Shown: positions 3,001-24,800, numbered from the stretch's first letter. The stretch: 64,000 nucleotides of DNA from Eledone cirrhosa (GCA_964016885.1 OZ024743.1:132556001-132620000), one strand, 5' to 3'. The notes: generated by a model not told the origin, from the sequence alone. Numbers and translations: made by a program.

Positions 3001-6000
3001 GTGCTTGGTGTTTTGTGCTTGGTTCTTGGTGTTTGGTGTTTGGTGCTTGGTACTTGGTGCGTGGTGTTAGGTGTTTGGTGCTTGGTGCTTGGTGTTTGGT
3101 GTTTGGTCCTTGGTGCTTGGTGCTTGGTGTTTAGTGCTTGGTGCTTGGTGTTTGTTGTTTGGTGCTTTCTGTTTGCTGCTTGGTGTTTGCTGCTTGGTGC
3201 TTGGTGCTTGGTGTTTGGTGTTTGGTGCTAGGTGCTTGGTGTTTGGTGTTTGGTGTTATATGCTTGGTGTTTGATGCTTGGTGCTTGGTGCTTGGTGTTT
3301 GGTGTTTGGTGCTTGGTGTTTTATGCTTGGTGTTTGATGTTTGGTGCTTGGTGCTTGGTGTTTGGTGCTTGGTGCTTGGTGTTTGTACTTGGTGCTTGGT
3401 GCTTGGTTCTTGGTGTTTGGTGCTAGGTGCTTGGTGCTTGGTGCTTGGTGTTTGGTGCTTGGTGTTTGGTGCTTCGTGTTTGGTGCTTGGTGCCTGGTGC
3501 TTGGTGCTTGGTGCTTGGTGTTTGGTGCTTGGTGTTTGCTGCTTGGTATTAGGTGTTTGGTGCTTGGTGCTTGGTGTTTGGTGTTTGGTGCTTGGTGTTT
3601 GGTGCTTGGTGTTTGGTGTTTGGTGCTTGGTGTTTGGTGCTTGGTACTTGGTGCTTGGTGCTTGGTGTTAGGTGTTTGGTGCTTGGTGCTTGGTGTTTGG
3701 TTTTTGGTGCTTGGTGCTTGGTGTTTGGTGTTTGGTGCTTGCTGCTGGCTGCTTGGTGTTTGGTGCTTGGTGATTGGTGCTTGGTGTTTGGTGCTTGGTG
3801 TTTGGTGTTTGGTACTAGGTGCTTGGTGCTTGGTGTTTGGTGCTTGGTGCTTGGTGTTTGGTGCTTGGTGCTTAGTGTTTGGTGCTAGGTGCTTGGGGTT
3901 TGGTGTTTGGTGCTTGGTGCTTGGTGTTTGGTGCTTGGTGCTTGGTGTTTGGTGTTTGGTGCTTGGTGCTTGGTGTTTGGTGTTTGCTGTTTGGTGTTTG
4001 GTGTTTGGTGTTTGCTGTTTGGTGTCTGCTTTTTGGTGTTTGGTGTTTGCGGTATGGTGTTTGCTGTTTCGTGTTTGGTGTTTGCTGTTTGGTGTTTGGT
4101 GTTTGCTGTTTGGTGTTTGGTCTTTGGTGCTTGGTGTTTGGTGCTTGGTGCTTGGTGTTTGGTGTTTGGTGCTTGGTGTTTGGTGTTTGGTGCTTGGTGC
4201 TTGGTGCTTGGTGTTTGGTGCTTGGTGTCTGGTGCTTGGTGTCTGGTGCTTGGTGTTTGGTGCTTGGTGTTTGGTGCTTGGTGTTTGGTGTTTGGTGCTT
4301 GTTGCTTGGTGCTTGGAGCTTGGTGTTTGGTGCTTGGTGCTTGGTGTTTGGTGCTGGGTGCTTGGTGTTTGGTGCTTGGTGCTTGGTGTTTGGTGTTTGG
4401 TGCTTGGTGCTTGGTGTTTGGTGTTTGGTGTTATATGCTTGGTGTTTGGTGCTTGGTGCTTGGTGTTTGGTGTTTGGTTCTTGATGCTTGGTATTTGGTG
4501 CTTGGTGCTTGCTGCTTGGTGTTTGGTGCTTGGTGATTGATGCTTGGTGTTTGGTGCTTGGTGCTTGGTGTTTGGTGTTTGGTGCTTGTTGCTTGGTGCT
4601 TGGTGCTTGGTGTTTGGTGCTTGGTGCTTGGTGTTTGGTGCTGGGTGCTTGGTGTTTGGTGCTTGGTGCTTGGTGTTTGGTGTTTGGTGCTTGGTGCTTG
4701 GTGTTTGGTGTTTGGTGTTATATGCTTGGTGTTTGGTGCTTGGTGCTTGGTGTTTGGTGTTTGGTTCTTGATGCTTGGTATTTGGTGCTTGGTGCTTGCT
4801 GCTTGGTGTTTGGTGCTTGGTGATTGATGCTTGGTGTTTGGTGCTTGGTGCTTGGTGTTTGGTTTTTGGTGCTAGGTGCTTGGTGCTTGGTGTTTGGTGC
4901 TTGGTGTTTGGTGTTTGGTGCTTGGTGCTTGGTGTTTGGTACTTGGTGCTTGGTGCTTGGTGTTTGGTGCTTGGTGCTTGGTGTTTGGTGTTTGGTGTTT
5001 GGTGCTTGGTGCTTGGTGTTTGGTGCTTGGTGCTTGGTGCTTGGTGTTTCGTGCTAGGTGCATGGTGCTTGGTGTTTGGTGCTTGGTGCTTGGTGCTTGG
5101 TCTTTGGTGTTTGGTGTTTAGTGCTTGGTGCTTGGTGCTTGGTGCTTGGTGCTTGGTGCTTGGTCCTTGGTGTTTGGTGCTTGGTGCTTGGTGTTTGGTG
5201 TTTGGTGCTTGGTGCTTGGTGCTTCGTGTTTGGTGTTTGGTGCTTGGTGTCTGGAGCTTGGTGTTTGGTGTTTGGTGCTTGGTGTTTGGTGTTTGGTGCT
5301 TGGTGCTTGGTGTTTGGTGCTTGGTGCTTGGTGTTTGTACTTGGTGCTTGGTGCTTGGTGTTTGGTGCTTGGTTCTTGGTGTTTGGTGCTTGGTGTTTGG
5401 AGCTTGGTGCTTGGTGTTTGGTGCTTGGTGCTTGGTGTTTGTACTTGGTGCTTGGTGCTTGGTGTTTGGTGCTTGGTTCTTGGTGTTTGGTGCTTGGTGT
5501 TTGGAGCTTGGTGCTTGGTGTTTGGTGCTTGGTGCTTGGTGTTTGGTGTTTGGTGCTTGGTGCTTGGTGTTTGGTGTTTGGTGCTTGGTGTTTGGTGTTT
5601 GGTGTTTGGTGCTTGGTGCTTGGTGTTTGTTGCTTGGTACTTGGTGCATGGTGTTTGGTGCTGGGTGCTTGGTGTTTTGTGCTTGGTTCTTGGTGTTTGG
5701 TGTTTGGTGCTTGGTACTTGGTGTCTGGAGCTTGGTGTTTGGTGTTTGGTGCTTGGTGTTTGGTGCTTGGTGCTTGGTGTTTGGTGTTTCGTGTTTGATG
5801 CTTGGTGTTTTATGCTTGGTGCTTGGTGTTTGGTGCTTGGTGTTTGTATTTGGTGCTTGGTGCTTGGTGTTTTGTGCTTGGTTCTTGGTGTTTGGTGTTT
5901 GGTGCTTGGTACTTGGTGCTTGGTGTTAGGTGTTTGGTGCTTGGTGCTTGGTGTTTGGTGTTTGGTCCTTGGTGCTTGGTGCTTGGTCTTTAGTTCTTGG

Positions 6001-6625
6001 TGCTTGGTGTTTGTTGTTTGGTGCTTTCTGTTTGCTGCTTGGTGTTTGCTGCTTGGTGCTTGGTGCTTGGTGTTTGGTGTTTGGTGCTAGGTGCTTGGTG
6101 TTTGGTGTTTGGTGTTTGATGCTTGGTGTTTGGTGCTTGGTGTTTGGTGCTTGGTGCTTGGGGCTTGGTGTTTGGTGCTTGGTGCTTGGTGCTTGGTGTT
6201 TCGTGCTTGGTGCTTGGTGTTTGGTGTTTGGTGTTTGGTGCTTGGTGCTTTGTGTTTGGTGCTTGGTGCTTGGTGCTGGGTGGTTGGTATTTGGTGCTTG
6301 GTGCTTGGTGTTTGGTGCTTGGTGCTTGGTGCTTGGTGTTTGGTGCTTGGTGCTTGGTGCTTGGTCTTTGGTGCTTGGTGTTTGGTGTTTGGTGCTTGAT
6401 GCTTTGTGTTTGGTGCTTGGTGATTAGTGTTTGGTGCTTGGTACTTGGTGTTTGGTGCTTGGTGTTTGGTGTTTGCTGTTTGGTGTTTGGTGTTTGGTGT
6501 TTGCTGTTTGGTGTCTGCTTTTTGGTGTTTGGTGTTTGTTGTATGGTGTTTGCTGTTTCGTGTTTGGTGTTTGCTGTTTGGTGTTTGGTGTTTGCTGTTT
6601 GGTGTTTGGTCTTTGGTGCTTGGTG
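1..6625 (+). repeat. Higher-order duplication with a 4,089-bp period (1 to about 2535 repeated at 4090 to about 6625)
   Basis: ORF-track pairs share the offset 4089 (399/4488, 686/4775, 1036/5125, 2034/6123). One difference seen (cttcatg versus cttgatg near 2309/6398). Confidence 0.9.
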
Positions 6626-9600
6626 TTTGGTGCTTGGTGCTTGGTGTTTGGTGTTTGGTGCTTGGTGCTTGGTGCTTGGTGTTTGGTGCTTGGTGCTTGG
6701 TGTTTGGTGCTTGGTGTTTGGTGCTTGGTGCTTGGTGTTTGGTGCTTGGTGCTGGGTGGTTGGTGTTTGGTGCTTGGTGCTTGGTGTTTCGTGCTAGGTG
6801 CATGGTGCTTGGTGTTTGGTGCTTGGTGCTTGGTGCTTGGTGCTTGGTGCTTGGTCCTTGGTGTTTGGTGCTTGGTGCTTGGTCTTTGGTGTTTGGTGCT
6901 TGGTGCTTGGTGCTTCGTGTTTGGTGTTTGGTGCTTGGTGTCTGGAGCTTGGTGTTTGGTGTTTGGTTCTTGGTGTTTGGTGTTTCGTGCTTGGTGCTTG
7001 GTGTTTGGTGCTTGGTGCTTGGTGTTTGGTGCTTGGTGTTTGGGGCTTGGTTCTTGGTGTTTGGTGCTTGGTGTTTGGAGCTTGGTGCTTGGTGTTTGGT
7101 GCTTGGTGCTTGGTGTTTGTACTTGGTGCTTGGTGCTTGGTGTTTGGTGCTTGGTTCTTGGTGTTTGGTGCTTGGTGTTTGGAGCTTGGTGCTTGGTGTT
7201 TGGTGCTTGGTGCTTGGTGTTTGGTGTTTGGTGCTCGGTGCTTGGTGTTTGGTGTTTGGTGCTTGGTGTTTGGTGTTTGGTGCTTGGTGCTTGGTGTTTG
7301 TTGCTTGGTACTTGGTGCATGGTGTTTGGTGCTGGGTGCTTGGTGTTTTGTGCTTGGTTCTTGGTGTTTGGTGTTTGGTGCTTGGTACTTGGTGTCTGGA
7401 GCTTGGTGTTTGGTGTTTGGTGCTTGGTGTTTGGTGCTTGGTGCTTGGTGTTTGGTGTTTGGTGTTTGATGCTTGGTGTTTTATGCTTGGTGCTTGGTGT
7501 TTGGTGCTTGGTGTTTGTATTTGGTGCTTGGTGCTTGGTGTTTTGTGCTTGGGTCTTGGTGTTTGGTGTTTGGTGCTTGGTACTTGGTGCTTGGTGTTAG
7601 GTGTTTGGTGCTTGGTGCTTGGTGTTTGGTGTTTGGTCCTTGGTGCTTGGTGCTTGGTGTTTAGTGCTTGGTGCTTGGTGTTTGTTGTTTGGTGCTTTCT
7701 GTTTGCTGCTTGGTCTTTGCTGCTTGGTGCTTGGTGCCTGGTGTTTGGTGTTTGGTGCTAGGTGCTTGGTGTTTGGTGTTTGGTGTTTGATGCTTGGTGT
7801 TTGGTGCTTGGTGTTTGGTGCTTGGTGCTTGGGGCTTGGTGTTTGGTGCTTGGTGCTTGGTGCTTGGTGTTTGGTGCTTGGTGCTTGGTGTTTGGTGTTT
7901 GGTGTTTGGTGCTTGGTGCTTGGTGTTTGGTGCTTGGTGCTTGGTGCTGGGTGGTTGGTATTTGGTGCTTGGTGCTTGGTGTTTGGTGCTTGGTGCTTGG
8001 TGCTTGGTGTTTGGTGCTTGGTGCTTGGTGCTTGGTCTTTGGTGCTTGGTGTTTGGTGTTTGGTGTTTGGTGCTTTGTGTTTGGTGCTTGGTGATTAGTG
8101 TTTGGTGCTTGGTACTTGGTGTTTGGTGCTTGGTGTTTGGTGTTTGCTGTTTGGTGTTTGGTGTTTGCTGTTTGCTGTTTGGTGTCTGCTTTTTGGTGTT
8201 TGGTGTTTGCTGTATGGTGTTTGCTGTTTCGTGTTTGGTGTTTGCTGTTTGCTGTTTGGTGTTTGCTGTTTGGTGTTTGGTCTTTGGTGCTTGGTGTTTG
8301 GTGCTTGGTGCTTGGTGTTTGGTGTTTGGTGCTTGGTGCTTGGTGCTTGGTGTTTGGTGCTTGGTGTCTGGTGCTTGGTGTCTGGTGCTTGGTGTTTGGT
8401 GTTTGGTGTTTGGTGCTTGGTGTTTGGTGTTTGGTGTTTGGTGTTTGGTGCTTGTTGCTTGGTGCTTGGTGCTTGGTGTTTGGTGCTTGGTGCTTGGTGT
8501 TTGGTGCTGGGGGCTTGGTGTTTGGTGCTTGGTGCTTGGTGCTTGGTGTTTGGTGTTTGGTGCTTGGTGCTTGGTGTTTGGTGTTTGGTGTTATATGCTT
8601 GGTGTTTGATGCTTGGTGCTTGGTGCTTGGTGTTTGGTGTTTGGTGCTTGGTGTTTTATGCTTGGTGTTTGATGTTTGGTGCTTGGTGCTTGGTTTTTGG
8701 TGCTTGGTGCTTGGTGTTTCTACTTGGTGCTTGGTGCTTGGTTCTTGGTGTTTGGTGCTTGGTGCTTGGTGCTTGGTGCTTGGTGTTTGGTGCTTGGTGT
8801 TTGGTGCTTGGTGTTTGGTGCTTGGTGCCTGGTGCTTGGTGCTTGGTGCTTGGTGTTTGGTGCTTGGTGTTTGGTGCTTGGTATTAGGTGTTTGGTGCTT
8901 GGTGCTTGGTGTTTGGTGTTTGGTGCTTGGTGTTTGGTGCTTGGTGTTTGGTGTTTGGTGCTTGGTATTTGGTGCTTGGTACTTGGTGCTTGGTGCTTGG
9001 TGCTAGGTGTTTGGTGCTTGGTGCTTGGTGTTTGGTTTTTGGTGCTTGGTGCTTGGTGTTTGGTGTTTGGTGCTTGCTGCTGGCTGCTTGGTGTTTGGTG
9101 CTTGGTGATTGGTGCTTGGTGTTTGGTGCTTGGTGTTTGGTGTTTGGTACTAGGTGCTTGGTGCTTGGTGTTTGGTGCTTGGTGCTTGGTGTTTGGTGTT
9201 TGGTGATTGGTGCTTGGTGTTTGGTGCTTGGTGCTGGGTTCTGGGTGGTTGGTGTTTGGTGCTTGGTGTTTGGTGCTGGGTGCTTGGTGTTTGGTGCTTG
9301 GTGCTTGGTCTTTGGTGTTTGGTGTTTGGTGTTTGGGGCTTGGTGCTTGGTGCTTGGTGTTTGGTGCTTGGTGCTTGGTGTTTGGTGCTTGGTGCTTAGT
9401 GTTTGGTGCTAGGTGCTTGGGGTTTGGTGTTTGGTGCTTGGTGCTTGGTGTTTGGTGCTTGGTGCTTGGTGTTTGGTGTTTGGTGCTTGGTGCTTGGTGC
9501 TTGGTGTTTGGTGTTTCCTGTTTGCTGTTTGGTGTTTGGTGTTTGGTGTTTGCTGTTTGGTGTCTGCTTTTTGGTGTTTGGTGTTTGCTGTATGTTATTT

Positions 9601-12600
9601 GCTGTTTGGTGTTTGGTGTTTGGTGTTTGGTGCTTGGTGCTTGGTGTTTGGTGCTTGGTGCTTGGTGTTTGGTGCCTGGTGCTTGGGGCTTGGTGTTTGG
9701 TGTTTGGTGCTTGGTGCTTGGAGTTTGGTGTTTGGTGCTTGGTGCTTGGTGTTTTGTGTTTGGTGTTTGGTTTTTGGTGCTTGGTGCTTGGTGCTTGGTG
9801 CTTGGTCCTTGGTGTTTGGTGCTTGGTGCTTGGTGTTTGTACTTGGTGCTTGGTGCTTGGTGTTTGGTTCTTGGTTCTTGGTGTTTGGTACTTGGTGCTT
9901 GGTGCTTGGTGTTTGGTGCTTGGTGCTTGGTGTTTGGTGTTTGGTGTTTGGTGCTTGGTGCTTGGTGTTTGGTGCTTGGTGCTTGGTGCTGGGTGGTTGG
10001 TATTTGGTGCTTGGTGCTTGGTGTTTGGTGCTTGGTGCTTGGTGCTTGGTGTTTCGTGCTTGGTGCTTGGTGCTTGGTCTTTGGTGCTTGGTGTTTGGTG
10101 TTTGGTGCTTGGTGCTTTGTGTTTAGTGCTTGGTGATTAGTGTTTGGTGCTTGGTACTTGGTGTTTGGTGCTTGGTGTTTGGTGTTTGCTGTTTGGTGTT
10201 TGGTGTTTGGTATTTGCTGTTTGGTGTCTGCTTTTTGGTGTTTGGTGTTTGCTGTATGGTGTTTGCTGTTTCGTGTTTGGTGTTTGCTGTTTGGTGTTTG
10301 GTGTTTGCTGTTTGGTGTTTGGTCTTTGGTGCTTGGTGTTTGGTGCTTGGTGCTTGGTGTTTGGTGTTTGGTGCTTGGTGTTTGGTGTTTGGTGCTTGGT
10401 GCTTGGTGCTTGGTGTTTGGTGCTTGGTGTCTGGTGCTTGGTGTCTGGTGCTTGGTGTTTGGTGTTTGGTGTTTGGTGCTTGGTGTTTGGTGTTTGGTGT
10501 TTGGTGTTTGGTGCTTGTTGCTTGGTGCTTGGTGCTTGGTGTTTGGTGCTTGGTGCTTGGTGTTTGGTGCTGTGTGCTTGGTGTTTGGTGCTTGGTGCTT
10601 GGTGTTTGGTGTTTGGTGCTTGGTGCTTGGTGTTTGGTGTTTGGTGTTATATGCTTGGTGTTTGGTGCTTGGTGCTTGGTGTTTGGTGTTTGGTTCTTGA
10701 TGCTTGGTATTTGGTGCTTGGTGCTTGCTGCTTGGTGTTTGGTGCTTGGTGCTTGGTGTTTGGTACTTGGTGCTTGGTGCTTGGTGTTTGGTGCTTGGTG
10801 CTTGGTGTTTGGTGTTTGGTTCTTGATGCTTGGTATTTGGTGCTTGGTGCTTGCTGCTTGGTGTTTGGTGCTTGGTGCTTGGTGTTTGGTACTTGGTGCT
10901 TGGTGCTTGGTGTTTGGTGCTTGGTGCTTGGTGTTTGGTGTTTGGTGTTTGGTGCTTGGTGCTTGGTGTTTGGTGCTTGGTGCTGGGTGGTTGGTGTTTG
11001 GTGTTTGGTGCTTGGTGTTTTGTACTAGGTGCATGGTGCCTGGTGTTTGGTGCTTGGTGCTTGGTGCTTGGTCTTTGGTGTTTGGTGTTTAGTGCTTGGT
11101 GCTTGGTGCTTGGTGCTTGGTGCTTGGTGCTTGGTCCTTGGTGTTTGGTGCTTGGTGCTTGGTGTTTGGTGTTTGGTGCTTGGTGCTTGGTGCTTCGTGT
11201 TTGGTGTTTGGTGCTTGGTGTCTGGAGCTTGGTGTTTGGTGTTTGGTGCTTGGTGCTTGGTGTTTGGTGCTTGGTGCTTGGTGCTTGGTGTTTGGTGCTT
11301 GGTTCTTGGTGCTTGGTCTTTGGTGCTTGGTGTTTGGTGTTTGGTGCCTGGTGCTTTGTGTTTGGTGCTTGGTGATTAGTGTTTGGTGCTTGGTACTTGG
11401 TGTTTGGTGCTTGGTGTTTGGTGTTTGCTGTTTGGTGTTTGGTGTTTGCTGTTTGCTGTTTGGTGTCTGCTTTTTGGTGTTTGGTGTTTGCTGTATGGTG
11501 TTTGCTGTTTCGTGTTTGGTGTTTGCTGTTTGGTGTTTGGTGTTTGCTGTTTGGTGTTTGGTCTTTGGTGCTTGGTGTTTGGTGCTTGGTGCTTGGTGTT
11601 TGTACTTGGTGCTTGGTGCTTGGTGTTTGGTTCTTGGTTCTTGGTGTTTGGTACTTGGTGCTTGGTGCTTGGTGTTTGGTGCTTGGTGCTTGGTGTTTGG
11701 TGTTTGGTGTTTGGTGCTTGGTGCTTGGTGTTTGGTGCTTGGTGCTTGGTGCTGGGTGGTTGGTATTTGGTGCTTGGTGCTTGGTGTTTGGTGCTTGGTG
11801 CTTGGTGCTTGGTGTTTGGTGCTTGGTGCTTGGTGCTTGGTCTTTGGTGCTTGGTGTTTGGTGTTTGGTGCTTGGTGCTTTGTGTTTGCTGCTTGGTGAT
11901 TAGTGTTTGGTGCTTGGTACTTGGTGTTTGGTGCTTGGTGTTTAGTGTTTGCTGTTTGGTGTTTGGTCTTTGGTGCTTGGTGTTTGGTGCTTGGTGCTTG
12001 GTGTTTGTACTTGGTGCTTGGTGCTTGGTGTTTGGTTCTTGGTTCTTGGTGTTTGGTACTTGGTGCTTGGTGCTTGGTGTTTGGTGCTTGGTGCTTGGTG
12101 TTTGGTGTTTGGTGTTTGGTGCTTGGTGCTTGGTGTTTGGTGCTTGGTGCTTGGTGCTGGGTGGTTGGTATTTGGTGCTTGGTGCTTGGTGTTTGGTGCT
12201 TGGTGCTTGGTGCTTGGTGTTTGGTGCTTGGTGCTTGGTGCTTGGTCTTTGGTGCTTGGTGTTTGGTGTTTGGTGCTTGGTGCTTTGTGTTTGCTGCTTG
12301 GTGATTAGTGTTTGGTGCTTGGTACTTGGTGTTTGGTGCTTGGTGTTTAGTGTTTGCTGTTTGGTGTTTGGTGTTTGGTGTTTGCTGTTTGGTGTCTGCT
12401 TTTTGGTGTTTGGTGTTTGCTGTATGGTGTTTGCTGTTTGGTGTTTGGTGTTTGCTGTTTGGTGTTTGGTGTTTGCCGTTTGGTGTATGGTCTTTGGTGC
12501 TTGGTGTTTGGTGCTTGGTGCTTGGTGTTTGGTGTTTGGTGCTTGGTGTTTGGTGCTTGGTGTTTGGTGCTTGGTGCTTGGTGCTTGGTGTTTGGTGCTT

Positions 12601-13742
12601 GGTGCTTGGTGCTTGGTGTTTGGTGCTTGGTGTCTGGTGCTTGGTGTCTGGTGCTTGGTGTTTGGTGTTTGGTGTTTGGTGCTTGGTGTTTGGTGTTTGG
12701 TGTTTGGTGTTTGGTGCTTGTTGCTTGGTGCTTGGTGCTTGGTGTTTGGTGCTTGGTGCTTGGTGTTTGGTGCTGGGTGCTTGGTGTTTGGTGCTTGGTG
12801 CTTGGTGTTTGGTGTTTGGTGCTTGGTGCTTGGTGTTTGGTGTTTGGTGTTATATGCTTGGTGTTTGGTGCTTGGTGCTTGGTGTTTGCTGTTTGGTTCT
12901 TGATGCTTGGTATCTGGTGCTTGGTGCTTGCTGCTTGGTGTTTGGTGCTTGGTGATTGATGCTTGGTGTTTGGTGCTTGGTGCTTGGTGTTTGGTTTTTG
13001 GTGCTTGGTGCTTGGTGTTTGGTGCTTGGTGCTTGGTGCTGGGTCGTTGGTATTTGGTGCTTGGTGCTTGGTGTTTGGTGCTTGGTGCTTGGTGCTTGGT
13101 GTTTGGTGCTTGGTGCTTGGTGCTTGGTCTTTGGTGCTTGGTGTTTGGTGTTTGGTGCTTGGTGCTTTGTGTTTGGTGCTTGGTGATTAGTGTTTGGTGC
13201 TTGGTACTTGGTGTTTGGTGCTTGGTGTTTGGTGTTTGTTGTTTGGTGTTTGGTGTTTGGTGTTTGCTGTTTGGTGTCTGCTTTTTGGTGTTTGGTGTTT
13301 GCTGTATGGTGTTTGCTGTTTCGTGTTTGGTGTTTGCTGTTTGGTGTTTGGTGTTTGCTGTTTGGTGTTTGGTCTTTGGTGCTTGGTGTTTGGTGCTTGG
13401 TGCTTGGTGTTTGGTGTTTGGTGCTTGGTGCTTGGTGCTTCGTGTTTGGTGTTTGGTGCTTGGTGTCTGGAGCTTGGTGTTTGGTGTTTGGTGCTTGGTG
13501 TTTGGTGTTTCGTGCTTGGTGCTTGGTGTTTGGTGCTTGGTGCTTGGTGTTTGGTGCTTGGTGTTTGGTGCTTGGTTCTTGGTGTTTGGTGCTTGGTGTT
13601 TGGAGCTTGGTGCTTGGTGTTTGGTGCTTGGTGCTTGGTGTTTGTACTTGGTGCTTGGTGCTTGGTGTTTGGTGCTTGGTTCTTGGTGTTTGGTGCTTGG
13701 TGTTTGGAGCTTGGTGCTTGGTGTTTGGTGCTTGGTGCTTGG

Positions 13743-13746
13743 TGTT
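13743..13746 (+). other. Target-site duplication TGTT, left copy
   Basis: Junctions read cttggTGTT|tatagcgg and ccgctaca|TGTTtggtg. Removing the element plus one TGTT restores the 7-bp phase and reproduces the paralogous empty site at about 7180-7310. Confidence 0.92.
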
Positions 13747-14112
13747 TATAGCGGGAATACTGGTTGCATGAATGTAACAAAACGAGACAATGTTTGTGTA
13801 TATAATATTTAATTAACGGTAGATAGAATACTTGACATGTCAAAGATAGATGTTAGAATGAAACAAAGTTAGTAGTTACCGTTTTGATTGCCAGGCAAAC
13901 GCGGCTGGCAGAGGGCGCCTGGCCTTAGCCAGGCGCCTGTTGGCCAAATTAATGGCAGAGCCAAATGAGAAGACTCTTGACCTGGTGCCGAAAAGGCAAA
14001 GAGAGAGAGGAAGCTCAAAGCCGCCAGTTTTATAGGGCTCTGACCGGAAGTCGCAGAAAGGGCTCCACCTCCCGTCCAGATCCCAACCAAAACAAGGGAG
14101 ACAACCGCTACA
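13747..14112 (-). repeat. 3' LTR (366 bp)
   Basis: Direct repeat of 15526-15891, preceded on the minus strand by the PPT. Confidence 0.97.
13808..13813 (-). terminator. Putative polyadenylation signal ATTAAA in the 3' LTR (second copy at 15587-15592)
   Basis: ATTAAA followed by CA dinucleotides and a GT/T-rich tract (TTGTCTCGTTTTGTT), about 60 bp before the LTR end. Confidence 0.55.
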
Positions 14113-14126
14113 TAACCTCCCGCCAG
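14113..14126 (-). promoter_or_regulatory. Polypurine tract
   Basis: Minus strand CTGGCGGGAGGTTA directly abuts the TGTAG start of the 3' LTR. Confidence 0.8.
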
Positions 14127-14289
14127 AATTTTAGTGTATAAAAATCGAAATGAAAATATGTAGCAAGTTGGCGAGAATGTTGTAACAGGCATGAAAATTA
14201 CGACAAAAGAATGTTTGGAAAAATCAATGCTAGATATCAAGGTAGTAAAGTAAGGGAAGGGCTCAAAGTTCAAATGTACAAAATATAGT

Positions 14290-15039
14290 TCACTGGTGTG
14301 CAATCACATGACCGCAGGAAAGAAAGTGTGTTCCAGAGAATGAATGCAGGTGGTCTCTGTTCTGTGGTATATCGTGAATTTCCAACCTCCGAATGGATTT
14401 TCTCACAGGAAGAGTGCTGCAAAAATAAATTCTCTGGCTTTGGTTGCTGTTGCTGTTGCTGCTGCTGCTGTATTGCTGTTGCTGCTGCTGTATTGCTGTT
14501 GCTGCTGCTGCTGTAATGCTGTTGTTGCTGTATTGCTGTTGCTGCTGCTGTATTGCTGTTGTTGCTGTATTGCTGTTTCTGCTGCTGCTGTATTGCTGTT
14601 GCTGCTGTATTCGGTGTTTAAATTCACAGTAAAAAAAAATTTTTTTTTTTTTTTTAGAAAAAAATGAGTTGCGCAAAGTGCTAGAAATAGCAGCCGAAGT
14701 TGATGGTCGATGTTGAGAATGCGTTGATCTGGAAGGGTCCAGAGGCCAGCGACCAGAGAAATACGCATTCTTAATAAATGCGCGGTTATCAACGGTTAAT
14801 TTACATTGTAAATTTATAAACCGGCAAATAGAAGAATATAGCTTAAGGCTGAAGAATCCTTGGGGGAGAAATGCTATCTCTGGCGTGCGGCCGTCTGTGA
14901 GGAGAGACATCTCAGTGAATCGAGAATTTATGCTGCCTACACGTGCCAATACAAGGTTGAAAAAAAATAATATTTCTAACGCGCGAGAAAATGATAGTGC
15001 AATTTTGAAAGTGACAATGATGAAAAAGAAAGGCTTCAA
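14290..15039 (-). CDS. Possible 249-aa ORF in the element's sense orientation (Q/S/A-rich segment, no recognisable domain); may be non-coding
   Basis: Longest non-satellite ORF in the track and on the strand the element would transcribe. It crosses homopolymers and a stop-free repeat, and I recognise no homology. Confidence 0.2.
   Translation of the reverse strand: MKPFFFIIVTFKIALSFSRALEILFFFNLVLARVGSINSRFTEMSLLTDGRTPEIAFLPQGFFSLKLYSSICRFINLQCKLTVDNRAFIKNAYFSGRWPLDPSRSTHSQHRPSTSAAISSTLRNSFFSKKKKKIFFYCEFKHRIQQQQQYSSSRNSNTATTAIQQQQQQYSNNSITAAAATAIQQQQQQYSSSSNSNSNQSQRIYFCSTLPVRKSIRRLEIHDIPQNRDHLHSFSGTHFLSCGHVIAHQ
14444..14611 (+). repeat. Compound (TGC/TGT) repeat with an approximately 20-bp unit GCTGCTGCTGTATTGCTGTT, inside the retroelement
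   Basis: Exact units at 14461-14480 and 14481-14500, followed by length-variant copies. Confidence 0.93.
14631..14655. repeat. Adjacent A9 and T16 homopolymers
   Basis: Directly visible in the sequence. Confidence 0.9.
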
Positions 15040-15187
15040 TCAGCATAATTATTGGTGTGAACTTAGGAAAAAAACAAAAAACTTGAACGATGAAGAAAAC
15101 GAAGAACAAAAGGCAATGGTTCATCGAAAATAAATGTTCCTGTTGAAATGTTTTTTAAAGAATATCAAATTTCTTTTTTTTTTTTTG

Positions 15188-15309
15188 TGTTTTGAAAGAG
15201 TTCGTTGTAAGAAACGAGAAACATATATATATATCGTGAAATGTTTTTTTTGTTTTGAAAGTGTTCGTTGTAAGAAACGAGAAACATATATATATATATT
15301 GGTGAAATG
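15188..15309 (+). repeat. Two-copy tandem repeat with a 63-bp period in the element leader region
   Basis: TGTTTTGAAAGWGTTCGTTGTAAGAAACGAGAAACA(TA)n..GTGAAATG starts at 15188 and again at 15251. Confidence 0.92.
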
Positions 15310-15506
15310 CGACAGTTAATTGATGCGTGAGAGAAAAAGTATGTCTGTGCGAATTCCACATGTGCGTGTGTGCGTGTCCTTGAGTATTTTCATAGTTTGT
15401 CGCTAAATTTGCTGTGTATTCGTAATGTTACTCACAAAACCAGATGTGCTATTTTTTTCTTTTTTTGGGGGTGACCACTTATAGCGATGAGCGGCTGCGT
15501 GTTCGT

Positions 15507-15524
15507 ATCACGTCGGGGTCACCA
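15507..15524 (-). promoter_or_regulatory. Primer-binding site for tRNA-Trp(CCA); complementarity extends to 15493
   Basis: Minus strand TGGTGACCCCGACGTGAT is the complement of the 3' 18 nt of animal tRNA-Trp including CCA, the same PBS as avian sarcoma/leukosis viruses. It lies 1 nt from the LTR end. Confidence 0.95.
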
Positions 15525-15525
15525 A

Positions 15526-15891
15526 TATAGCGGGAATACTGGTTGCATGAATGTAACAAAACGAGACAATGTTTGTGTATATAATATTTAATTAACGGTA
15601 GATAGAATACTTGACATGTCAAAGATAGATGTTAGAATGAAACAAAGTTAGTAGTTACCGTTTTGATTGCCAGGCAAACGCGGCTGGCAGAGGGCGCCTG
15701 GCCTTAGCCAGGCGCCTGTTGGCCAAATTAATGGCAGAGCCAAATGAGAAGACTCTTGACCTGGTGCCGAAAAGGCAAAGAGAGAGAGGAAGCTCAAAGC
15801 CGCCAGTTTTATAGGGCTCTGACCGGAAGTCGCAGAAAGGGCTCCACCTCCCGTCCAGATCCCAACCAAAACAAGGGAGACAACCGCTACA
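15526..15891 (-). repeat. 5' LTR (366 bp)
   Basis: Minus strand reads TGTAGCGG...CCGCTATA (7/8 terminal inverted repeat). Followed after a 1-nt spacer by the PBS. Matches 13747-14112 at offset 1779 with no difference found by eye. Confidence 0.97.
15807..15813 (-). promoter_or_regulatory. Putative TATA box in the 5' LTR U3 (second copy at 14028-14034)
   Basis: CCC-TATAAAA-CTGG about 80 bp into the LTR, with a pyrimidine-rich CTCTCTCTCTTTG tract roughly 20-35 nt downstream. Confidence 0.6.
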
Positions 15892-15895
15892 TGTT
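15892..15895 (+). other. Target-site duplication TGTT, right copy
   Basis: Identical to 13743-13746. A 5-bp TSD does not fit (GTGTT versus TGTTT). Confidence 0.92.
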
Positions 15896-18800
15896 TGGTG
15901 TTTGGTGCTTGGTGCTTGGTGTTTGGTGTTTGGTGCTTGGTGTTTGGTGTTTGGTGCTTGGTGCTTGGTGTTTGTTGCTTGGTACTTGGTGCATGGTGTT
16001 TGGTGCTGGGTGCTTGGTGTTTTGTGCTTGGTTCTTGGTGTTTGGTGTTTGGTGCTTGGTACTTGGTGTCTGGAGCTTGGTGTTTGGTGTTTGGTGCTTG
16101 GTGTTTGGTGCTTGGTGCTTGGTGTTTGGTGTTTGGTGTTTGATGCTTGGTGTTTTATGCTTGGTGCTTGGTGTTTGGTGCTTGGTGTTTGTATTTGGTG
16201 CTTGGTGCTTGGTGTTTTGTGCTTGGGTCTTGGTGTTTGGTGTTTGGTGCTTGGTACTTGGTGCTTGGTGTTAGGTGTTTGGTCCTTGGTGCTTGGTGCT
16301 TGGTGTTTAGTGCTTGGTGCTTGGTGTTTGTTGTTTGGTGCTTTCTGTTTGCTGCTTGGTGTTTGCTGCTTGGTGCTTGGTGCTTGGTGTTTGGTGTTTG
16401 GTGCTAGGTGCTTGGTGTTTGGTGTTTGGTGTTTGATGCTTGGTGTTTGGTGCTTGGTGTTTGGTGCTTGGTGCTTGGGGCTTGGTGTTTGGTGCTTGGT
16501 GCTTGGTGCTTGGTGTTTGGTGCTTGGTGCTTGGTGTTTGGTGTTTGGTGTTTGGTGCTTGGTGCTTGGTGTTTGGTGCTTGGTGCTTGGTGCTGGGTGG
16601 TTGGTATTTGGTGCTTGGTGCTTGGTGTTTGGTGCTTGGTGCTTGGTGCTTGGTGTTTGGTGCTTGGTGCTTGGTGCTTGGTCTTTGGTGCTTGGTGTTT
16701 GGTGTTTGGTGTTTGGTGCTTTGTGTTTGGTGCTTGGTGATTAGTGTTTGGTGCTTGGTACTTGGTGTTTGGTGCTTGGTGTTTGGTGTTTGCTGTTTGG
16801 TGTTTGCTGTTTGCTGTTTGCTGTTTGGTGTCTGCTTTTTGGTGTTTGGTGTTTGCTGTATGGTGTTTGCTGTTTCGTGTTTGGTGTTTGCTGTTTGCTG
16901 TTTGGTGTTTGCTGTTTGGTGTTTGGTCTTTGGTGCTTGGTGTTTGGTGCTTGGTGCTTGGTGTTTGGTGTTTGGTGCTTGGTGCTTGGTGCTTGGTGTT
17001 TGGTGCTTGGTGTCTGGTGCTTGGTGTCTGGTGCTTGGTGTTTGGTGTTTGGTGTTTGGTGCTTGGTGTTTGGTGTTTGGTGTTTGGTGTTTGGTGCTTG
17101 TTGCTTGGTGCTTGGTGCTTGGTGTTTGGTGCTTGGTGCTTGGTGTTTGGTGCTGGGTGCTTGGTGTTTGGTGCTTGGTGCTTGGTGCTTGGTGTTTGGT
17201 GTTTGGTGCTTGGTGCTTGGTGTTTGGTGTTTGGTGTTATATGCTTGGTGTTTGATGCTTGGTGCTTGGTGCTTGGTGTTTGGTGTTTGGTGCTTGGTGT
17301 TTTATGCTTGGTGTTTGATGTTTGGTGCTTGGTGCTTGGTTTTTGGTGCTTGGTGCTTGGTGTTTCTACTTGGTGCTTGGTGCTTGGTTCTTGGTGTTTG
17401 GTGCTTGGTGCTTGGTGCTTGGTGCTTGGTGTTTGGTGCTTGGTGTTTGGTGCTTGGTGTTTGGTGCTTGGTGCCTGGTGCTTGGTGCTTGGTGCTTGGT
17501 GTTTGGTGCTTGGTGTTTGGTGCTTGGTATTAGGTCTTTGGTGCTTGGTGCTTGGTGTTTGGTGTTTGGTGCTTGGTGTTTGGTGCTTGGTGTTTGGTGT
17601 TTGGTGCTTGGTGTTTGGTGCTTGGTACTTGGTGCTTGGTGCTTGGTGTTAGGTGTTTGGTGCTTGGTGCTTGGTGTTTGGTTTTTGGTGCTTGGTGCTT
17701 GGTGTTTGGTGTTTGGTGCTTGCTGCTGGCTGCTTGGTGTTTGGTGCTTGGTGATTGGTGCTTGGTGTTTGGTGCTTGGTGTTTGGTGTTTGGTACTAGG
17801 TGCTTGGTGCTTGGTGTTTGGTGCTTGGTGCTTGGTGTTTGGTGTTTGGTGATTGGTGCTTGGTGTTTGGTGCTTGGTGCTGGGTTCTGGGTGGTTGGTG
17901 TTTGGTGCTTGGTGTTTGGTGCTGGGTGCTTGGTGTTTGGTGCTTGGTGCTTGGTCTTTGGTGTTTGGTGTTTGGTGTTTGGGGCTTGGTGCTTGGTGCT
18001 TGGTGTTTGGTGCTTGGTGCTTGGTGTTTGGTGCTTGGTGCTTAGTGTTTGGTGCTAGGTGCTTGGGGTTTGGTGTTTGGTGCTTGGTGCTTGGTGTTTG
18101 GTGCTTGGTGCTTGGTGTTTGGTGTTTGGTGCTTGGTGCTTGGTGCTTGGTGTTTGGTGTTTCCTGTTTGCTGTTTGGTGTTTGGTGTTTGGTGTTTGCT
18201 GTTTGGTGTCTGCTTTTTGGTGTTTGGTGTTTGCTGTATGTTATTTGCTGTTTGGTGTTTGGTGTTTGGTGTTCGGTGCTTGGTGCTTGGTGTTTGGTGC
18301 TTGGTGCTTGGTGTTTGGTGCCTGGTGCTTGGGGCTTGGTGTTTGGTGTTTGGTGCTTGGTGCTTGGAGTTTGGTGTTTGGTGCTTGGTGCTTGGTGTTT
18401 TGTGTTTGGTGTTTGGTTTTTGGTGCTTGGTGCTTGGTGCTTGGTGCTTGGTCCTTGGTGTTTGGTGCTTGGTGCTTGGTGTTTGTACTTGGTGCTTGGT
18501 GCTTGGTGTTTGGTTCTTGGTTCTTGGTGTTTGGTACTTGGTGCTTGGTGCTTGGTGCTTGGTGCTTGGTGCTTGGTGTTTGGTGTTTGGTGTTTGGTGC
18601 TTGGTGCTTGGTGTTTGGTGCTTGGTGCTTGGTGCTGGGTGGTTGGTATTTGGTGCTTGGTGCTTGGTGTTTGGTGCTTGGTGCTTGGTGCTTGGTGTTT
18701 GGTGCTTGGTGCTTGGTGCTTGGTCTTTGGTGCTTGGTGTTTGGTGTTTGGTGCTTGGTGCTTTGTGTTTGGTGCTTGGTGATTAGTGTTTGGTGCTTGG

Positions 18801-21800
18801 TACTTGTTGTTTGGTGCTTGGTGTTTGGTGTTTGCTGTTTGGTGTTTGGTGTTTGGTGTTTGCTGTTTGGTGTCTGCTTTTTGGTGTTTGGTGTTTGCTG
18901 TATGGTGTTTGCTGTTTCGTGTTTGGTGTTTGCTGTTTGGTGATTGGTGTTTGCTGTTTGGTGTTTGGTCTTTGGTGCTTGGTGTTTGGTGCTTGGTGCT
19001 TGGTGTTTGGTGTTTGGTGCTTGGTGTTTGGTGCTTGGTGCTTGCTGCTTGGTGTTTGGTGCTTGGTGATTGATGCTTGGTGTTTGGTGCTTGGTGCTTG
19101 GTGTTTGGTTTTTGGTGCTAGGTGCTTGGTGCTTGGTGTTTGGTGTTTGGTGCTTGGTGCTTGGTGTTTGGTACTTGGTGCTTGGTGTTTGGTGCTTAGT
19201 GCTTGGTGTTTGGTGCTGGGTGCTTGGTGTTTGGTGCTTGGTGCTTGGTGTTTGGTGTTTGGTGCTTGGTGCTTGGTGTTTGGTATTTGGTGTTATATGC
19301 TTGGTGTTTGGTGCTTGGTGCTTGGTGTTTGGTGTTTGGTTCTTGATGCTTGGTATTTGGTGCTTGGTGCTTGCTGCTTGGTGTTTGGTGCTTGGTGATT
19401 GATGCTTGGTGTTTGGTGCTTGGTGCTTGGTGTTTGGTTTTTGGTGCTAGGTGCTTGGTGCTTGGTGTTTGGTGCTTGGTGTTTGGTGTTTGGTGCTTGG
19501 TGCTTGGTGTTTGGTACTTGGTGCTTGGTGCTTGGTGTTTGGTGCTTGGTGCTTGGTGTTTGGTGTTTGGTGTTTGGTGCTTGGTGCTTGGTGTTTGGTG
19601 CTTGGTGCTGGGTGGTTGGTGTTTGGTGCTTGGTGCTTGGTGTTTTGTGCTAGGTGCATGGTGCCTGGTGTTTGGTGCTTGGTGCTTGGTGCTTGGTCTT
19701 TGGTGTTTGGTGTTTAGTGCTTGGTGCTTGGTGCTTGGTGCTTGGTGCTTGGTGCTTGGTCCTTGGTGTTTGGTGCTTGGTGCTTGGTGTTTGGTGTTTG
19801 GTGCTTGGTGCTTGGTGCTTCGTGTTTGGTGTTTGGTGCTTGGTGTCTGGAGCTTGGTGTTTGGTGTTTGGTGCTTGGTGTTTGGTGTTTGGTGCTTGGT
19901 GCTTGGTGTTTGGTGCTTGGTGCTTGGTGCTTGGTGTTTGGTGCTTGGTGCTTGGTGCTTGGTCTTTGGTGCTTGGTGTTTGGTGTTTGGTGCTTGGTGC
20001 TTTGTGTTTGGTGCTTGGTGATTAGTGTTTGGTGCTTGGTACTTGGTGTTTGGTGCTTGGTGTTTGGTGTTTGCTGTTTGGTGTTTGGTGTTTGCTGTTT
20101 GCTGTTTGGTGTCTGCTTTTTGGTGTTTGGTGTTTGCTGTATGGTGTTTGCTGTTTCGTGTTTGGTGTTTGCTGTTTGGTGTTTGGTGTTTGTTGTTTGG
20201 TGTTTGGTTTTGGTGCTTGGTGTTTGGTGCTTGGTGCTTGGTGTTTGGTGTTTGGTGCTTGGTGCTTGGTGCTTGGTGTTTGGTGCTTGGTGTCTGGTGC
20301 TTGGTGTCTGGTGCTTGGTGTTTGGTGTTTGGTGTTTGGTGTTTGGTGCTTGGTGTTTGGTGTTTGGTGTTTGGTGTTTGGTGCTTGTTGCTTGGTGCTT
20401 GGTGCTTGGTGCTTGGTGCTTGGTCCTTGGTGTTTGGTGCTTGGTGCTTGGTGTTTGGTGTTTGGTGCTTGGTGCTTGGTGCTTCGTGTTTGGTGTTTGT
20501 TGCTTGGTGTCTGGAGCTTGGTGTTTGGTGTTTGGTGCTTGGTGTTTGGTGTTTGGTGCTTGGTGCTTGGTGTTTGGTGCTTGGTGCTTGGTGCTTGGTG
20601 TTTGGTGCTTGGTGCTTGCTGCTTGGTCTTTGGTGCTTGGTGTTTGGTGTTTGGTGCTTGGTGCTTTGTGTTTGGTGCTTGGTGATTAGTGTTTGGTGCT
20701 TGGTACTTGGTGTTTGGTGCTTGGTGTTTGGTGTTTGCTGTTTGGTGTTTGGTGTTTGCTGTTTGCTGTTTGGTGTCTGCTTTTTGGTGTTTGGTGTTTG
20801 CTGTATGGTGTTTGCTGTTTCGTGTTTGGTGTTTGCTGTTTGGTGTTTGGTGTTTGCTGTTCGGTGTTTGGTCTTTGGTGCTTGGTGTTTGGTGCTTGGT
20901 GCTTGGTGTTTGGTGTTTGGTGCTTGGTGCTTGGTGCTTGGTGTTTGGTGCTTGGTGTCTGGTGCTTGGTGTCTGGTGCTTGGTGTTTGGTGTTTGGTGT
21001 TTGGTGCTTGGTGTTTGGTGTTGGGTGTTTGGTGTTTGGTGCTTGTTGCTTGGTGCCTGGTGCTTGGTGTTTGGTGCTTGGTGCTTGGTGTTTGGTGCTG
21101 GGTGCTTGGTGTTTGGTGCTTGGTGCTTGGTGCTTGGTGTTTGGTGTTTGGTGCTTGGTGCTTGGTGTTTGGTGTTTGGTGTTATATGCTTGGTGTTTGA
21201 TGCTTGGTGCTTGGTGCATGGTGTTTGGTGTTTGGTGCTTGGTGTTTTATGCTTGGTGTTTGATGTTTGGTGCTTGGTGCTTGGTGTTTGGTGCTTGGTG
21301 CTTGGTGTTTCTACTTGGTGCTTGGTGCTTGGTGTTTGGTTCTTGGTTCTTGGTGTTTGGTACTTGGTGCTTGGTGCTTGGTGTTTGGTGCTTGGTGCTT
21401 GGAGTTTGGTGTTTGCTGCTTGGTGCTTGGTGTTTTGTGTTTGGTGTTTGGTTTTTGGTGCTTGGTGCTTGGTGCTTGGTGCTTGGTCCTTGGTGTTTGG
21501 TGCTTGGTGCTTGGTGTTTGTACTTGGTGCTTGGTGCTTGGTGTTTGGTTCTTGGTTCTTGGTGTTTGGTACTTGGTGCTTGGTGCTTGGTGTTTGGTGC
21601 TTGGTGCTTGGTGTTTGGTGTTTGGTGTTTGGTGCTTGGTGCTTGGTGTTTGGTGCTTGGTGCTTGGTGCTGGGTGGTTGGTATTTGGTGCTTGGTGCTA
21701 GGTGTTTGGTGCTTGGTGCTTGGTGCTTGGTGTTTGGTGCTTGGTGCTTGGTGCTTGGTCTTTGGTGCTTGGTGTTTGGTGTTTGGTGCTTGGTGCTTTG

Positions 21801-24800
21801 TGTTTGGTGCTTGGTGATTAGTGTTTGGTGCTTGGTACTTGGTGTTTGGTGCTTGGTGTTTGGTGTTTGCTGTTTGGTGTTTGGTGTTTGGTGTTTGCTG
21901 TTTGGTGTCTGCTTTTTGCTGTTTGGTGTTTGCTGTATGGTGTTTGCTGTTTCGTGTTTGGTGTTTGCTGTTTGGTGTTTGGTCTTTGGTGCTTGGAGTT
22001 TGGTGCTTGGTGCTTGGTGTTTGGTGTTTGGTGCTTGGTGTTTGGTGTTTGGTGCTTGGTGCTTGGTGCTTGGTGTTTGGTGCTTGGTGTCTGGTGCTTG
22101 GTGTCTGGTGCTTGGTGTTTGGTGTTTGGTGTTTGGTGCTTGGTGTTTGGTGTTTGGTGTTTGGTGTTTGGTGCTTGTTGCTTGGTGCTTGGTGCTTGGT
22201 GTTTGGTTTTTGGTGCTAGGTGCTTGGTGCTTGGTGTTTGGCGCTTGGTGTTTGGTGTTTGGTGCTTGGTGCTTGGTGTTTGGTACTTGGTGCTTGGTGC
22301 TTGGTGTTTGGTGCTTGGTGCTTGGTGTTTGGTGTTTGGTGTTTGGTGCTTGGTGCTTGGTGGTTGGTGCTTGGTGCTGGGTGGTTGGTATTTGGTGCTT
22401 GGTGCTTGGTGTTTTGTGCTAGGTGCATGGTGCCTGGTGTTTGGTGCTTGGTGCTTGGTGCTTGGTCTTTGGTGTTTGGTGTTTAGTGCTTGGTGCTTGG
22501 TGCTTGGTGCTTGGTGCTTGGTCCTTGGTGTTTGGTGCTTGGTGCTTGGTGTTTGGTGTTTGGTGCTTGGTGTCTGGAGCTTGGTGTTTGGTGTTTGGTG
22601 CTTGGTGTTTGGTGTTTGGTGCTTGGTGCTTGGTGTTTGGTGCTTGGTGCTTGGTGCTTGGTGTTTGGTGCTTGGTGCTTGGTGCTTGGTCTTTGGTGCT
22701 TGGTGTTTGGTGTTTGGTGCTTGGTGCTTTGTGTTTGGTGTTTGGTGATTAGTGTTTGGTGCTTGGTACTTGGTGTTTGGTGCTTGGTGTTTGGTGTTTG
22801 CTGTTTGGTGTTTGGTGTTTGGTGTTTGATGTTTGGTGTCTGCTTTTTGGTGTTTGGTGTTTGCTGTATGGTGTTTGCTGTTTGGTGTTTGGTGTTTGCT
22901 GTTTGGTGTTTGGTGTTTGCTGTTTGGTGTTTGGTCTTTGGTGCTTGGTGTTTGGTGCTTGGTGCTTGGTGTTTGGTGTTTGGTGCTTGGTGCTTGGTGC
23001 TTGGTGTTTGGTGCTTGGTGTCTGGTGCTTGGTGTCTGGTGCTTGGTGTTTGGTGTTTGGTGTTTGGTGCTTGGTGTTTGGTGTTTGGTGTTTGGTGTTT
23101 GGTGCTTGTTGCTTGGTGCTTGGTGCTTGGTGTTTGGTGCTTGGTGCTTGGTGTTTGGTGCTGGGTGCTTGGTGTTTGGTGCCTGGTGCTTGGTGCTTGG
23201 TGTTTGGTGTTTGGTGCTTGGTGCTTGGTGTTTGGTGTTTGGTGTTATATGCTTGGTGTTTGATGCTTGGTGCTTGGTGCTTGGTGTTTGGTGTTTGGTG
23301 CTTGGTGTTTTATGCTTGGTGTTTGATGTTTGGTGCTTGGTGCTTGGTGTTTGGTTCTTGGTGCTTGGTGTTTCTACTTGGTGCTTGGTGCTTGGTTCTT
23401 GGTGTTTGGTGCTTGGTGCTTGGTGCTTGGTGCTTGGTGTTTGGTGCTTGGTGTTTGGTGCTTGGTGTTTGGTGCTTGGTGCCTGGTGCTTGGTGCTTGG
23501 TGCTTGGTGTTTGGTGCTTGGTGTTTGGTGCTTGGTATTAGGTGTTTGGTGCTTGGTGCTTGGTGTTTGGTGTTTGGTGCTTGGTGTTTGGTGCTTGGTG
23601 TTTGGTGTTTGGTGCTTGGTGTTTGGTGCTTGGTACTTGGTGCTTGGTGCTTGGTGTTAGGTGTTTGGTGCTTGGTGCTTGGTGTTTGGTTTTTGGTGCT
23701 TGGTGCTTGGTGTTTGGTGTTTGGTGCTTGCTGCTGGCTGCTTGGTGTTTGGTGCTTGGTGATTGGTGCTTGGTGTTTGGTGCTTGGTGTTTGGTGTTTG
23801 GTACTAGGTGCTTGGTGCTTGGTGTTTGGTGCTTGGTGCTTGGTGTTTGGTGTTTGGTGATTGGTGCTTGGTGTTTGGTGCTTGGTGCTGGGTTCTGGGT
23901 GGTTGGTGTTTGGTGCTTGGTGTTTGGTGCTGGGTGCTTGGTGTTTGGTGCTTGGTGCTTGGTCTTTGGTGTTTGGTGTTTGGTGTTTGGGGCTTGGTGC
24001 TTGGTGCTTGGTGTTTGGTGCTTGGTGCTTCGTGTTTGGTGCTTGGTGCTTAGTGTTTGGTGCTACGTGCTTGGGGTTTGGTGTTTGGTGCTTGGTGCTT
24101 GGTGTTTGGTGCTTGGTGCTTGGTGTTTGGTGTTTGGTGCTTGGTGCTTGGTGTTTGGTGTTTCCTGTTTGCTGTTTGGTGTTTGGTGTTTGGTGTTTGC
24201 TGTTTGGTGTCTGCTTTTTGGTGCTTGGTGCTTGGTGCTTGGTCTTTGGTGCTTGGTGTTTGGTGTTTGGTGCTTGGTGCTTTGTGTTTGGTGCTTGGTG
24301 ATTAGTGTTTGGTGCTTGGTACTTGGTGTTTGGTGCTTGGTGTTTGGTGTTTGCTGTTTGGTGTTTGGTGTTTGGTGTTTGCTGTTTGGTGTCTGCTTTT
24401 TGGTGTTTGGTGTTTGCTGTATGGTGTTTGCTGTTTCGTGTTTGGTGTTTGCTGTTTGGTGTTTGGTGTTTGCTGTTTGGTGTTTGGTCTTTGGTGCTTG
24501 GTGTTTGGTGCTTGGTGCTTGGTGTTTGGTGTTTGGTGCTTGGTGCTTGGTGCTTGGTGTTTGGTGCTTGGTGTCTGGTGCTTGGTGTCTGGTGCTTGGT
24601 GTTTGGTGTTTGGTGTTTGGTGCTTGGTGTTTGGTGTTTGGTGTTTGGTGTTTGGTGCTTGTTGCTTGGTGCTTGGTGCTTGGTGTTTGGTGCTTGGTGC
24701 TTGGTGTTTGGTGCTGGGTGCTTGGTGTTTGGTGCTTGGTGCTTGGTGCTTGGTGTTTGGTGTTTGGTGCTTGGTGCTTGGTGTTTGGTGTTTGGTGTTA

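Follow-up and report, generated by a model that had tools for sequence, protein, structure and literature searches.

How did an apparently non-coding retrotransposon come to lie within a long satellite array, and what does its sequence retain of the way in which it was copied? This question is raised by a 64,000-nucleotide stretch of the Eledone cirrhosa genome (GCA_964016885.1, OZ024743.1:132556001-132620000; the window), in which a 2145-bp element bounded by long terminal repeats (LTRs) occupies positions 13747-15891 on the minus strand. A first-pass annotation had described it as a very young, intact, non-coding LTR element and the only insertion in the surrounding satellite, and had proposed recent mobilisation in trans by an active partner, a resemblance to the CsRn1 group of Ty3/Gypsy elements and, possibly, targeting of the satellite. 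As read from its sequence, the element is a real, recent and non-autonomous LTR insertion, itself mostly ordinary; what sets it apart from elements of known kind is an extended copy of tryptophan transfer RNA (tRNA-Trp) at its primer-binding site (PBS), a mismatch at tRNA position 58 within that copy, and a duplicated junction between the LTR end and the PBS. We consider it probable that this non-coding element was mobilised by a CsRn1-like helper, that it entered the array without being targeted there, and that its PBS region derives from reverse transcription past the methylated adenosine 58 (m1A58) of the primer tRNA. Papers are cited by their identifiers, for the passages that bear on each point.

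Results

Structure of the element

The structure given by the first-pass annotation, which named no strand and included neither the extended tRNA match nor the second junction copy, was borne out (Table 1). The LTR copies match exactly over 367 nt (13747-14113 and 15526-15892), and the best boundaries give LTRs of 366 bp that are 100% alike and are flanked by an intact 4-bp target-site duplication (TSD). From the letters alone, a 5-bp TSD with an LTR one base shorter is an alternative; the 4-bp reading is preferred because the 5-bp one breaks the register of an 8-bp terminal inverted repeat (7/8 in register under the 4-bp TSD), and because the 1-nt spacer between LTR and PBS is as in Gypsy-32_NVi and Helenus. 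The empty site, being the same under both readings, cannot choose between them. The PBS was compared with the 3' end of tRNA-Trp given in PMC7555719, and the Rfam model RSV_PBS aligns at the same place with an E of 4.8, under its gathering score. The short polypurine tract (PPT) is the sole 9-mer with at least seven G among the 1405 of the interior, and the TATA-like box and ATTAAA, pattern matches at LTR positions 79 and 300, both agree with the minus-strand orientation. The interior is AT-rich as first reported (37.8% GC, against 46.4% in the LTR). An LTR pair, a TSD, a PBS and a PPT, together with no detected gag or pol, place the element among the non-autonomous LTR retrotransposons.

Table 1. 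Features of the window, with positions counted from its first nucleotide.
Feature	Position	Strand	Remarks
TTGGTGY satellite of the host (7-bp unit), duplicated internally on a kilobase scale	1..64000	+	Single orientation throughout the window
TSD, left copy, 4 bp	13743..13746		Empty-site paralogs at ~7222 and ~54042
3' LTR, 366 bp, termini TGT…ATA	13747..14112	-	Identical to the 5' LTR
Interior, 1413 bp	14113..15525	-	No recognisable coding homology
Short G-rich PPT	14116..14124	-	3 nt before the 3' LTR; 8/9 purines
Longest stop-free frame, 249 aa	14293..15039	-	No ATG start; spans the simple repeat
Compound trinucleotide-based simple repeat (~170 bp)	14443..14611		
Internal tandem duplication, 63-bp spacing	15181..15297		96% identity across 54 nt
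LTR-end/PBS junction, second copy, decayed	15468..15486	-	16/19 columns identical
Possible decayed copy of tRNA positions ~38-44	15487..15492	-	By eye, suggestive only
Extension of the PBS, with complementarity to tRNA-Trp positions 45-58	15493..15506	-	Sole mismatch at position 58 (15506)
tRNA-Trp PBS, 18 nt	15507..15524	-	1 nt after the 5' LTR; 18/18 complementary to the tRNA-Trp 3' end
5' LTR, 366 bp	15526..15891	-	TATA-like box 15807-15813, ATTAAA 15587-15592; pattern matches, putative function
TSD, right copy	15892..15895		Same 4 bp as 13743-13746

The tRNA-Trp match beyond the primer-binding site

The complementarity to tRNA-Trp does not end with the PBS; it spans 32 nt, from tRNA position 45 through the T-arm to position 76, including the CCA, with 31 of the 32 positions matching. 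Set by eye against the chr12.trna6 row of a reference collection holding 26 Trp rows (PMC6379413, supplement 5), 15493-15521 agrees at 28 of the 29 gene-encoded positions (45-73), the discrepant position 58 being A in all 26 rows and T in the element; the tRNA type at the primer site fits vertebrate and insect rows. The 13/14 match beyond the PBS has a chance expectation of about 2e-7 to 2e-6. Read on the plus strand, 15497-15513 takes the fold of a T-arm, with a stem of 5 bp and a loop of 7 nt, and its distance from the CCA end is the correct one; the CCA end itself suggests that the template was either a mature tRNA or the PBS. In LTR replication plus-strand strong-stop DNA is halted at m1A58, and products that read through it are documented (PMC13191261). 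Reverse transcriptase (RT) is known to misread m1A, the C signal being small in the m1A-A context (PMC4787781), and for that reason the T found in the element is compatible with such misreading. Taken from the sequence, the 32-nt match likely records reverse transcription of a mature tRNA-Trp past m1A58. A literature search, covering titles and the starts of abstracts and few subscription journals, returned no 32-nt PBS with a position-58 mismatch and no description of such an element.

Shortly beyond the extension lies the second copy of the LTR-end/PBS junction, whose alignment score of 27 was reached by none of 2000 dinucleotide shuffles (maximum 24). It starts 38 nt from the CCA end; a stop at a methylated G37 would give a copy of 39 nt, a difference of one base. 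This second copy can also pair with the PBS (7 bp) within 15468-15524 and could in that way occlude it, although shuffled sequences fold as well.

The insertion and its age

A single satellite array, of period 7 with 82% matches, fills the whole window. Of the bases outside the element, 99.7% fall in 7-mers at most one mismatch from the satellite and the 123 uncovered runs are no longer than 6 bp, so that the element is the sole insertion in the window, as had been claimed. Zero differences over 366 bp place the divergence between the LTRs below 0.82% (95% bound). An empty paralog of the insertion site near 7222 shows 99.3% and 99.7% identity over 300 bp per flank, where the 99th percentile among 1470 in-phase offsets is 86%, and the block around the insertion differs from the 7222 block at 19 of 3503 aligned bases; a second empty paralog, near 54042, is about 1% diverged. 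The element occupies one of three near-identical array blocks, and the two empty paralogs indicate that its insertion took out no array sequence. Most simply, the insertion would be younger than the block duplications, provided that the empty blocks were not brought in afterwards from a homologue without the element.

The interior, with its decayed duplications, is old and non-coding, and in view of the identical LTRs, the TSD and the clean empty paralogs it appears to have passed through a recent replication cycle, for which Gag and Pol would therefore, from the life cycle of LTR elements, have been supplied in trans. This part of the first-pass annotation stands; the active partner that it expected in the same genome was overstated, because LTR identity bounds the divergence only to below 0.82% and the helper may segregate elsewhere or be lost already.

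The array itself is structured above the level of its unit. Near-identical blocks scoring at least 700 number 79, with a pooled divergence of 0.73%. The higher-order duplications are irregular, with offsets of, for example, 1503, 3560, 4089, 4375, 5878, 6497 and 8050 bp, and their divergence of 0.04-1.5% points to an array under active remodelling. Variant units of the TTGCTGT type, in short blocks of ~100-120 bp, form 47 clusters between 2383 and 63091, spaced by ~0.6-2.7 kb, and mark this higher-order structure, and a rarer 26-bp variant occurs nine times. Between the blocks at 13382-19033 and 6857-10387, 11 of the 19 differences are transversions, without transition bias. A whole-word literature search with two satellite units plus 'satellite' or 'repeat' returned no paper on the 7-bp unit.

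Coding capacity and other sequence features

No gag or pol was detected, in agreement with the first description: Pfam searches of the six frames, with stops read as X, and of the longest frame gave nothing above curated cutoffs (best E 0.007, low-complexity), a search that short frameshifted remnants could escape. The longest stop-free frame is probably not a gene. It had no usable match in the ESM Atlas and gave only E 0.21 and 0.98 in a PDB search; its 130-aa non-repetitive part, compared by phmmer with 1.84 billion representatives, gave two matches, one to a plexin-repeat protein and the other to an Ig-repeat protein from bacteria; they were rejected because each sums six weak stretches over tandem domains (26-29 bits pairwise). 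A W-P-x-D-P stretch, a motif which we take to be Gag-start-like, had no profile support and was dropped. Neither ARAGORN nor Rfam, all of whose matches were below gathering scores, gave a whole tRNA or other RNA gene in the element, and a prokaryotic origin was rejected, there being no match in plasmids, phages or GTDB genomes (for GTDB, with a 25-nt LTR stretch as query). A- and B-box patterns, in what we take to be their consensus form, are absent from both strands of the LTR.

Each LTR carries a 24-nt GC-rich near-palindrome (13914-13937, 15693-15716) that could fold into a hairpin within the predicted R region and is a possible dimerisation or packaging signal. On the plus strand each also carries a near-perfect sigma-70 promoter pattern (13832-13859, 15611-15638; 11/12, extended -10); with five such sites against 4.0 expected these are probably due to chance, and could matter for cloning of the LTR in bacteria. 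The observed/expected CpG ratio, 0.72 in the LTR and 0.99 in the interior, is not much depleted, which suggests little germline CpG methylation of the element family or of the host. The simple repeat of the interior holds the third commonest 7-mer unit of the satellite on the same strand, probably by coincidence; a derivation of the repeat from the satellite was rejected, the two having no 11-mer in common, and no 14-mer of the element recurs elsewhere in the window.

Discussion

The history that we propose begins in the 5' LTR, where RNA polymerase II would start a minus-strand transcript that runs from the TATA-like box to the ATTAAA. The Gag and Pol of a helper would then package the RNA, with tRNA-Trp at the PBS and the PPT priming synthesis. 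Integration left a 4-bp duplication and an intact array, presumably after the block duplication, and the element has since taken no part in copying of the array; fast turnover of the array may mean that only young insertions are visible. In an ancestor of this copy, plus-strand strong-stop DNA would have passed m1A58, placed an A opposite it and continued through the T-arm, perhaps as far as position 38, beside G37, before slipping back to the LTR end and recopying the junction. The resulting order would be LTR end, PBS, T-arm copy and second LTR-end/PBS copy, the last of which would have decayed later. Once present, the extension would let later over-extended products finish the second strand transfer.

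The helper is likely a CsRn1-like Ty3/Gypsy element, judging from the cis signals of the copy itself. Elements of this type have a 4-bp TSD, ends TGT…AAA or TGT…ATA, a tRNA-Trp PBS and a CHCC Gag (PMC2582038). The first three are present here, in keeping with the likeness to the clade that the first-pass annotation had proposed, and a Gag was not found by Pfam, as expected of a non-coding element. By eye, six of seven positions agree at each end with the CsRN1 attachment (att) motifs in Table 3 of PMC3601003. This test alone is not decisive, because gammaretroviral att motifs fit too (7/9 and 6/7, by eye, a moderate fit). Since it has neither Gag nor RT, the element is not filed as a member of CsRn1 and is called CsRn1-like in its cis signals.

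Several points weigh against this account, that moderate gammaretroviral fit among them. Against the commoner Trp rows the match falls to 26/29, and the reference rows may not equal the tRNA-Trp of the host; a single random substitution would land on position 58 with a chance of 1/14 to 1/32. The match to tRNA positions ~38-44 is weak (5/8 columns with one gap, including the shared base 15486), a stop at m1G37 would need a modification that we presume, and the difference in decay between positions 45-57, which are intact, and the second junction falls short of significance (P ~0.11). A hairpin that would sequester the PBS was rejected, with a z of -1.5 and 16 of 200 shuffles folding equally well. 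The tie to CsRn1 is made of cis signals without any protein, and a single copy in the window leaves family status, copy number and targeting matters of conjecture. The data on m1A misincorporation come from laboratory RT (PMC4787781). Finally, long primer sites may be common in Trp-primed Gypsy elements, because the autonomous, Trp-primed Gypsy-32_NVi has the full 18-nt PBS and a further match at +19 (T) within the 20 nt shown.

Two other origins of the extended site have to be weighed in particular. In one, a tRNA segment was inserted on the chromosome by target-primed reverse transcription, through the machinery of long interspersed elements (LINEs) or break repair, with the PBS as microhomology, so that the junction copies would be a TSD of ~18 nt. 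The geometry is indeed the same, a 5'-truncated piece of tRNA standing between direct repeats of 18-19 nt, and Culex cqgypsy_1 was so read by its authors (PMC3286476). Both processes predict the same layout, and a single sequence cannot tell them apart. We nevertheless regard a chromosomal insertion as unlikely, since a nick would have to fall precisely at the PBS and no poly-A tail is present, whereas over-extension on the bound primer is a documented by-product of LTR replication (PMC13191261).

In the other, the extension is a selected, longer site for primer annealing, perhaps common in Trp-primed Gypsy elements, and position 58 drifted because m1A cannot pair, with no RT error. The wholly intact positions 45-57 speak for it, as does Gypsy-32_NVi, whose match goes past 18 nt in the part shown, and a complementary sequence adjacent to the PBS, which rescues short over-extensions, is retained by lentiviruses and spumaviruses (PMC13191261). 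Selection, however, accounts for the upkeep of such a site and not for its origin, and the comparators have short tRNA matches: 12 nt in PwRn1 and AgCR (PMC2582038), ~11 nt in CsRn1_Cv1 (PMC3630058) and 13-14 nt in two Helenus families. We therefore find it a doubtful explanation of the extended site, and reverse transcription past m1A58 remains the reading that we prefer.

A larger and more tentative version of over-extension, which we think improbable as it stands, is that of a non-coding CsRn1-type family carrying an over-extension trap, in which the PBS would be rewritten from mature tRNA-Trp whenever m1A58 is read through, the modification would be stored as a fixed mismatch, and the parasite would replicate from the strong-stop products that its helper wastes. 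That such a family should also target the 7-bp satellite is less likely still. If over-extension past m1A58 does become fixed in the germline, tRNA modifications (m1A58, possibly m1G37) would stand recorded in the genome in the PBS regions of retrotransposons, and the extension would be a means, acting in cis, through which a non-coding element might compete with its own helper. A site complementary to more of the tRNA would also give 3' tRNA fragments a larger target. The insertion as such, ordinary as it is, has its use as a dated marker for turnover of the array, for it lies in one of three near-identical blocks.

As to its location, the element probably entered the satellite without targeting, and the targeting raised by the first-pass annotation was not upheld. 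A centrophilic family, in which the integrase of the helper is guided to array chromatin and the non-coding element rides along, would fit a young, intact element inside a pure array. A survey of 325 genomes, however, found Gypsy to be the commonest LTR invader of satellite arrays, and array-embedded elements to be younger and more intact than those outside, which its authors read as centrophily plus turnover (10.64898/2026.09.17.752431). On our analysis turnover alone is sufficient for one young copy in an array. The single insertion makes up 3.4% of the window, below the average transposon content of ~10% in invertebrate arrays in that survey; CsRn1-like copies show no preferred target bases (PMC2582038); and the 4-bp target is uninformative, because it occurs 3722 times in the array. 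The array, moreover, is known from its sequence as a satellite and not as a centromere. Targeting is for these reasons quite unlikely, and while a CsRn1-type integrase directed to a satellite would be notable, nothing here supports it.

It is very unlikely that the copy is a one-off deletion derivative, or that its LTR identity comes from gene conversion or assembly collapse; no second copy lies in the window, and identical repeats can be homogenised, but the interior has no coding remnant and carries decayed duplications of its own, and yet is framed by identical LTRs, a TSD and clean empty paralogs. Four-base-pair TSDs and Trp priming also occur in some ERV1 groups. A derivative of an ERV1-like, Trp-primed endogenous retrovirus rather than of a Gypsy element, to which the full 18-nt PBS and the moderate fit of the gamma-type att motifs would be suited, is highly improbable given the short PPT, the lack of any env, gag or pol trace by Pfam, and an ATA end that is documented for CsRn1-like elements (PMC2582038), where retroviral motifs end in CA (PMC3601003, Table 3).

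Comparison with known elements

In size the element falls outside the LARDs, whose large non-coding interior runs to several kilobases, with a limit of ~4 kb, against 1413 bp here. TRIMs of the Helenus type are likewise non-autonomous and Gypsy-dependent in animals, with a 4-bp TSD and, in some, a Trp PBS after a 1-nt spacer; unlike the 2145-bp element, they are defined as shorter than 1000 bp, the longest Helenus having 1263 bp, and Helenus (TRIMp3) bears in its LTR a tRNA-like promoter for RNA polymerase III, with A and B boxes, that was not found here (PMC10886601). Culex cqUNK is close in its general plan, being a non-coding element of a few kilobases with LTRs, PBS, TSD and tandem repeats in the interior, and with no master copy identified; it differs in that 'Trp' is nowhere in the main text of PMC3286476, whose passages on cqUNK give no satellite context.

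With the CsRn1 clade (CsRn1, PwRn1, AgCR and CsRn1_Cv1) the element shares the 4-bp TSD, the TGT…ATA ends, the Trp PBS and a PPT adjoining the 3' LTR, and the PwRn1 LTR, of 381 bp, is similar in length to its own of 366 bp. Copies of the clade match their tRNA over ~11-12 nt, in contrast to 32 nt here, and the element departs from them in having no detected Gag or Pol and a duplicated LTR-end/PBS junction. Centrophilic retrotransposons such as Tal1, CRM and ATHILA (10.64898/2026.09.17.752431) are also young and intact LTR elements within satellite arrays, but there targeting was shown by enrichment or experiment, whereas here there is one copy, in an array that need not be centromeric.

For the primer site itself, two systems are the most instructive. 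Culex cqgypsy_1 likewise has a CCA-ended tRNA sequence at its PBS, bordered by a duplicate of the LTR end; it is of the Osvaldo lineage, carries two whole tRNAs (Lys and Glu) and a 26-nt duplication, and the sections of PMC3286476 on it mention no position-58 signature. The primer over-extension sequence of lentiviruses and spumaviruses resembles the one described here in providing tRNA complementarity just past the 18-nt PBS, by which read-through of m1A58 is rescued; whereas that sequence serves products ending at positions 54-55 (PMC13191261), the complementarity of the E. cirrhosa element reaches position 45.

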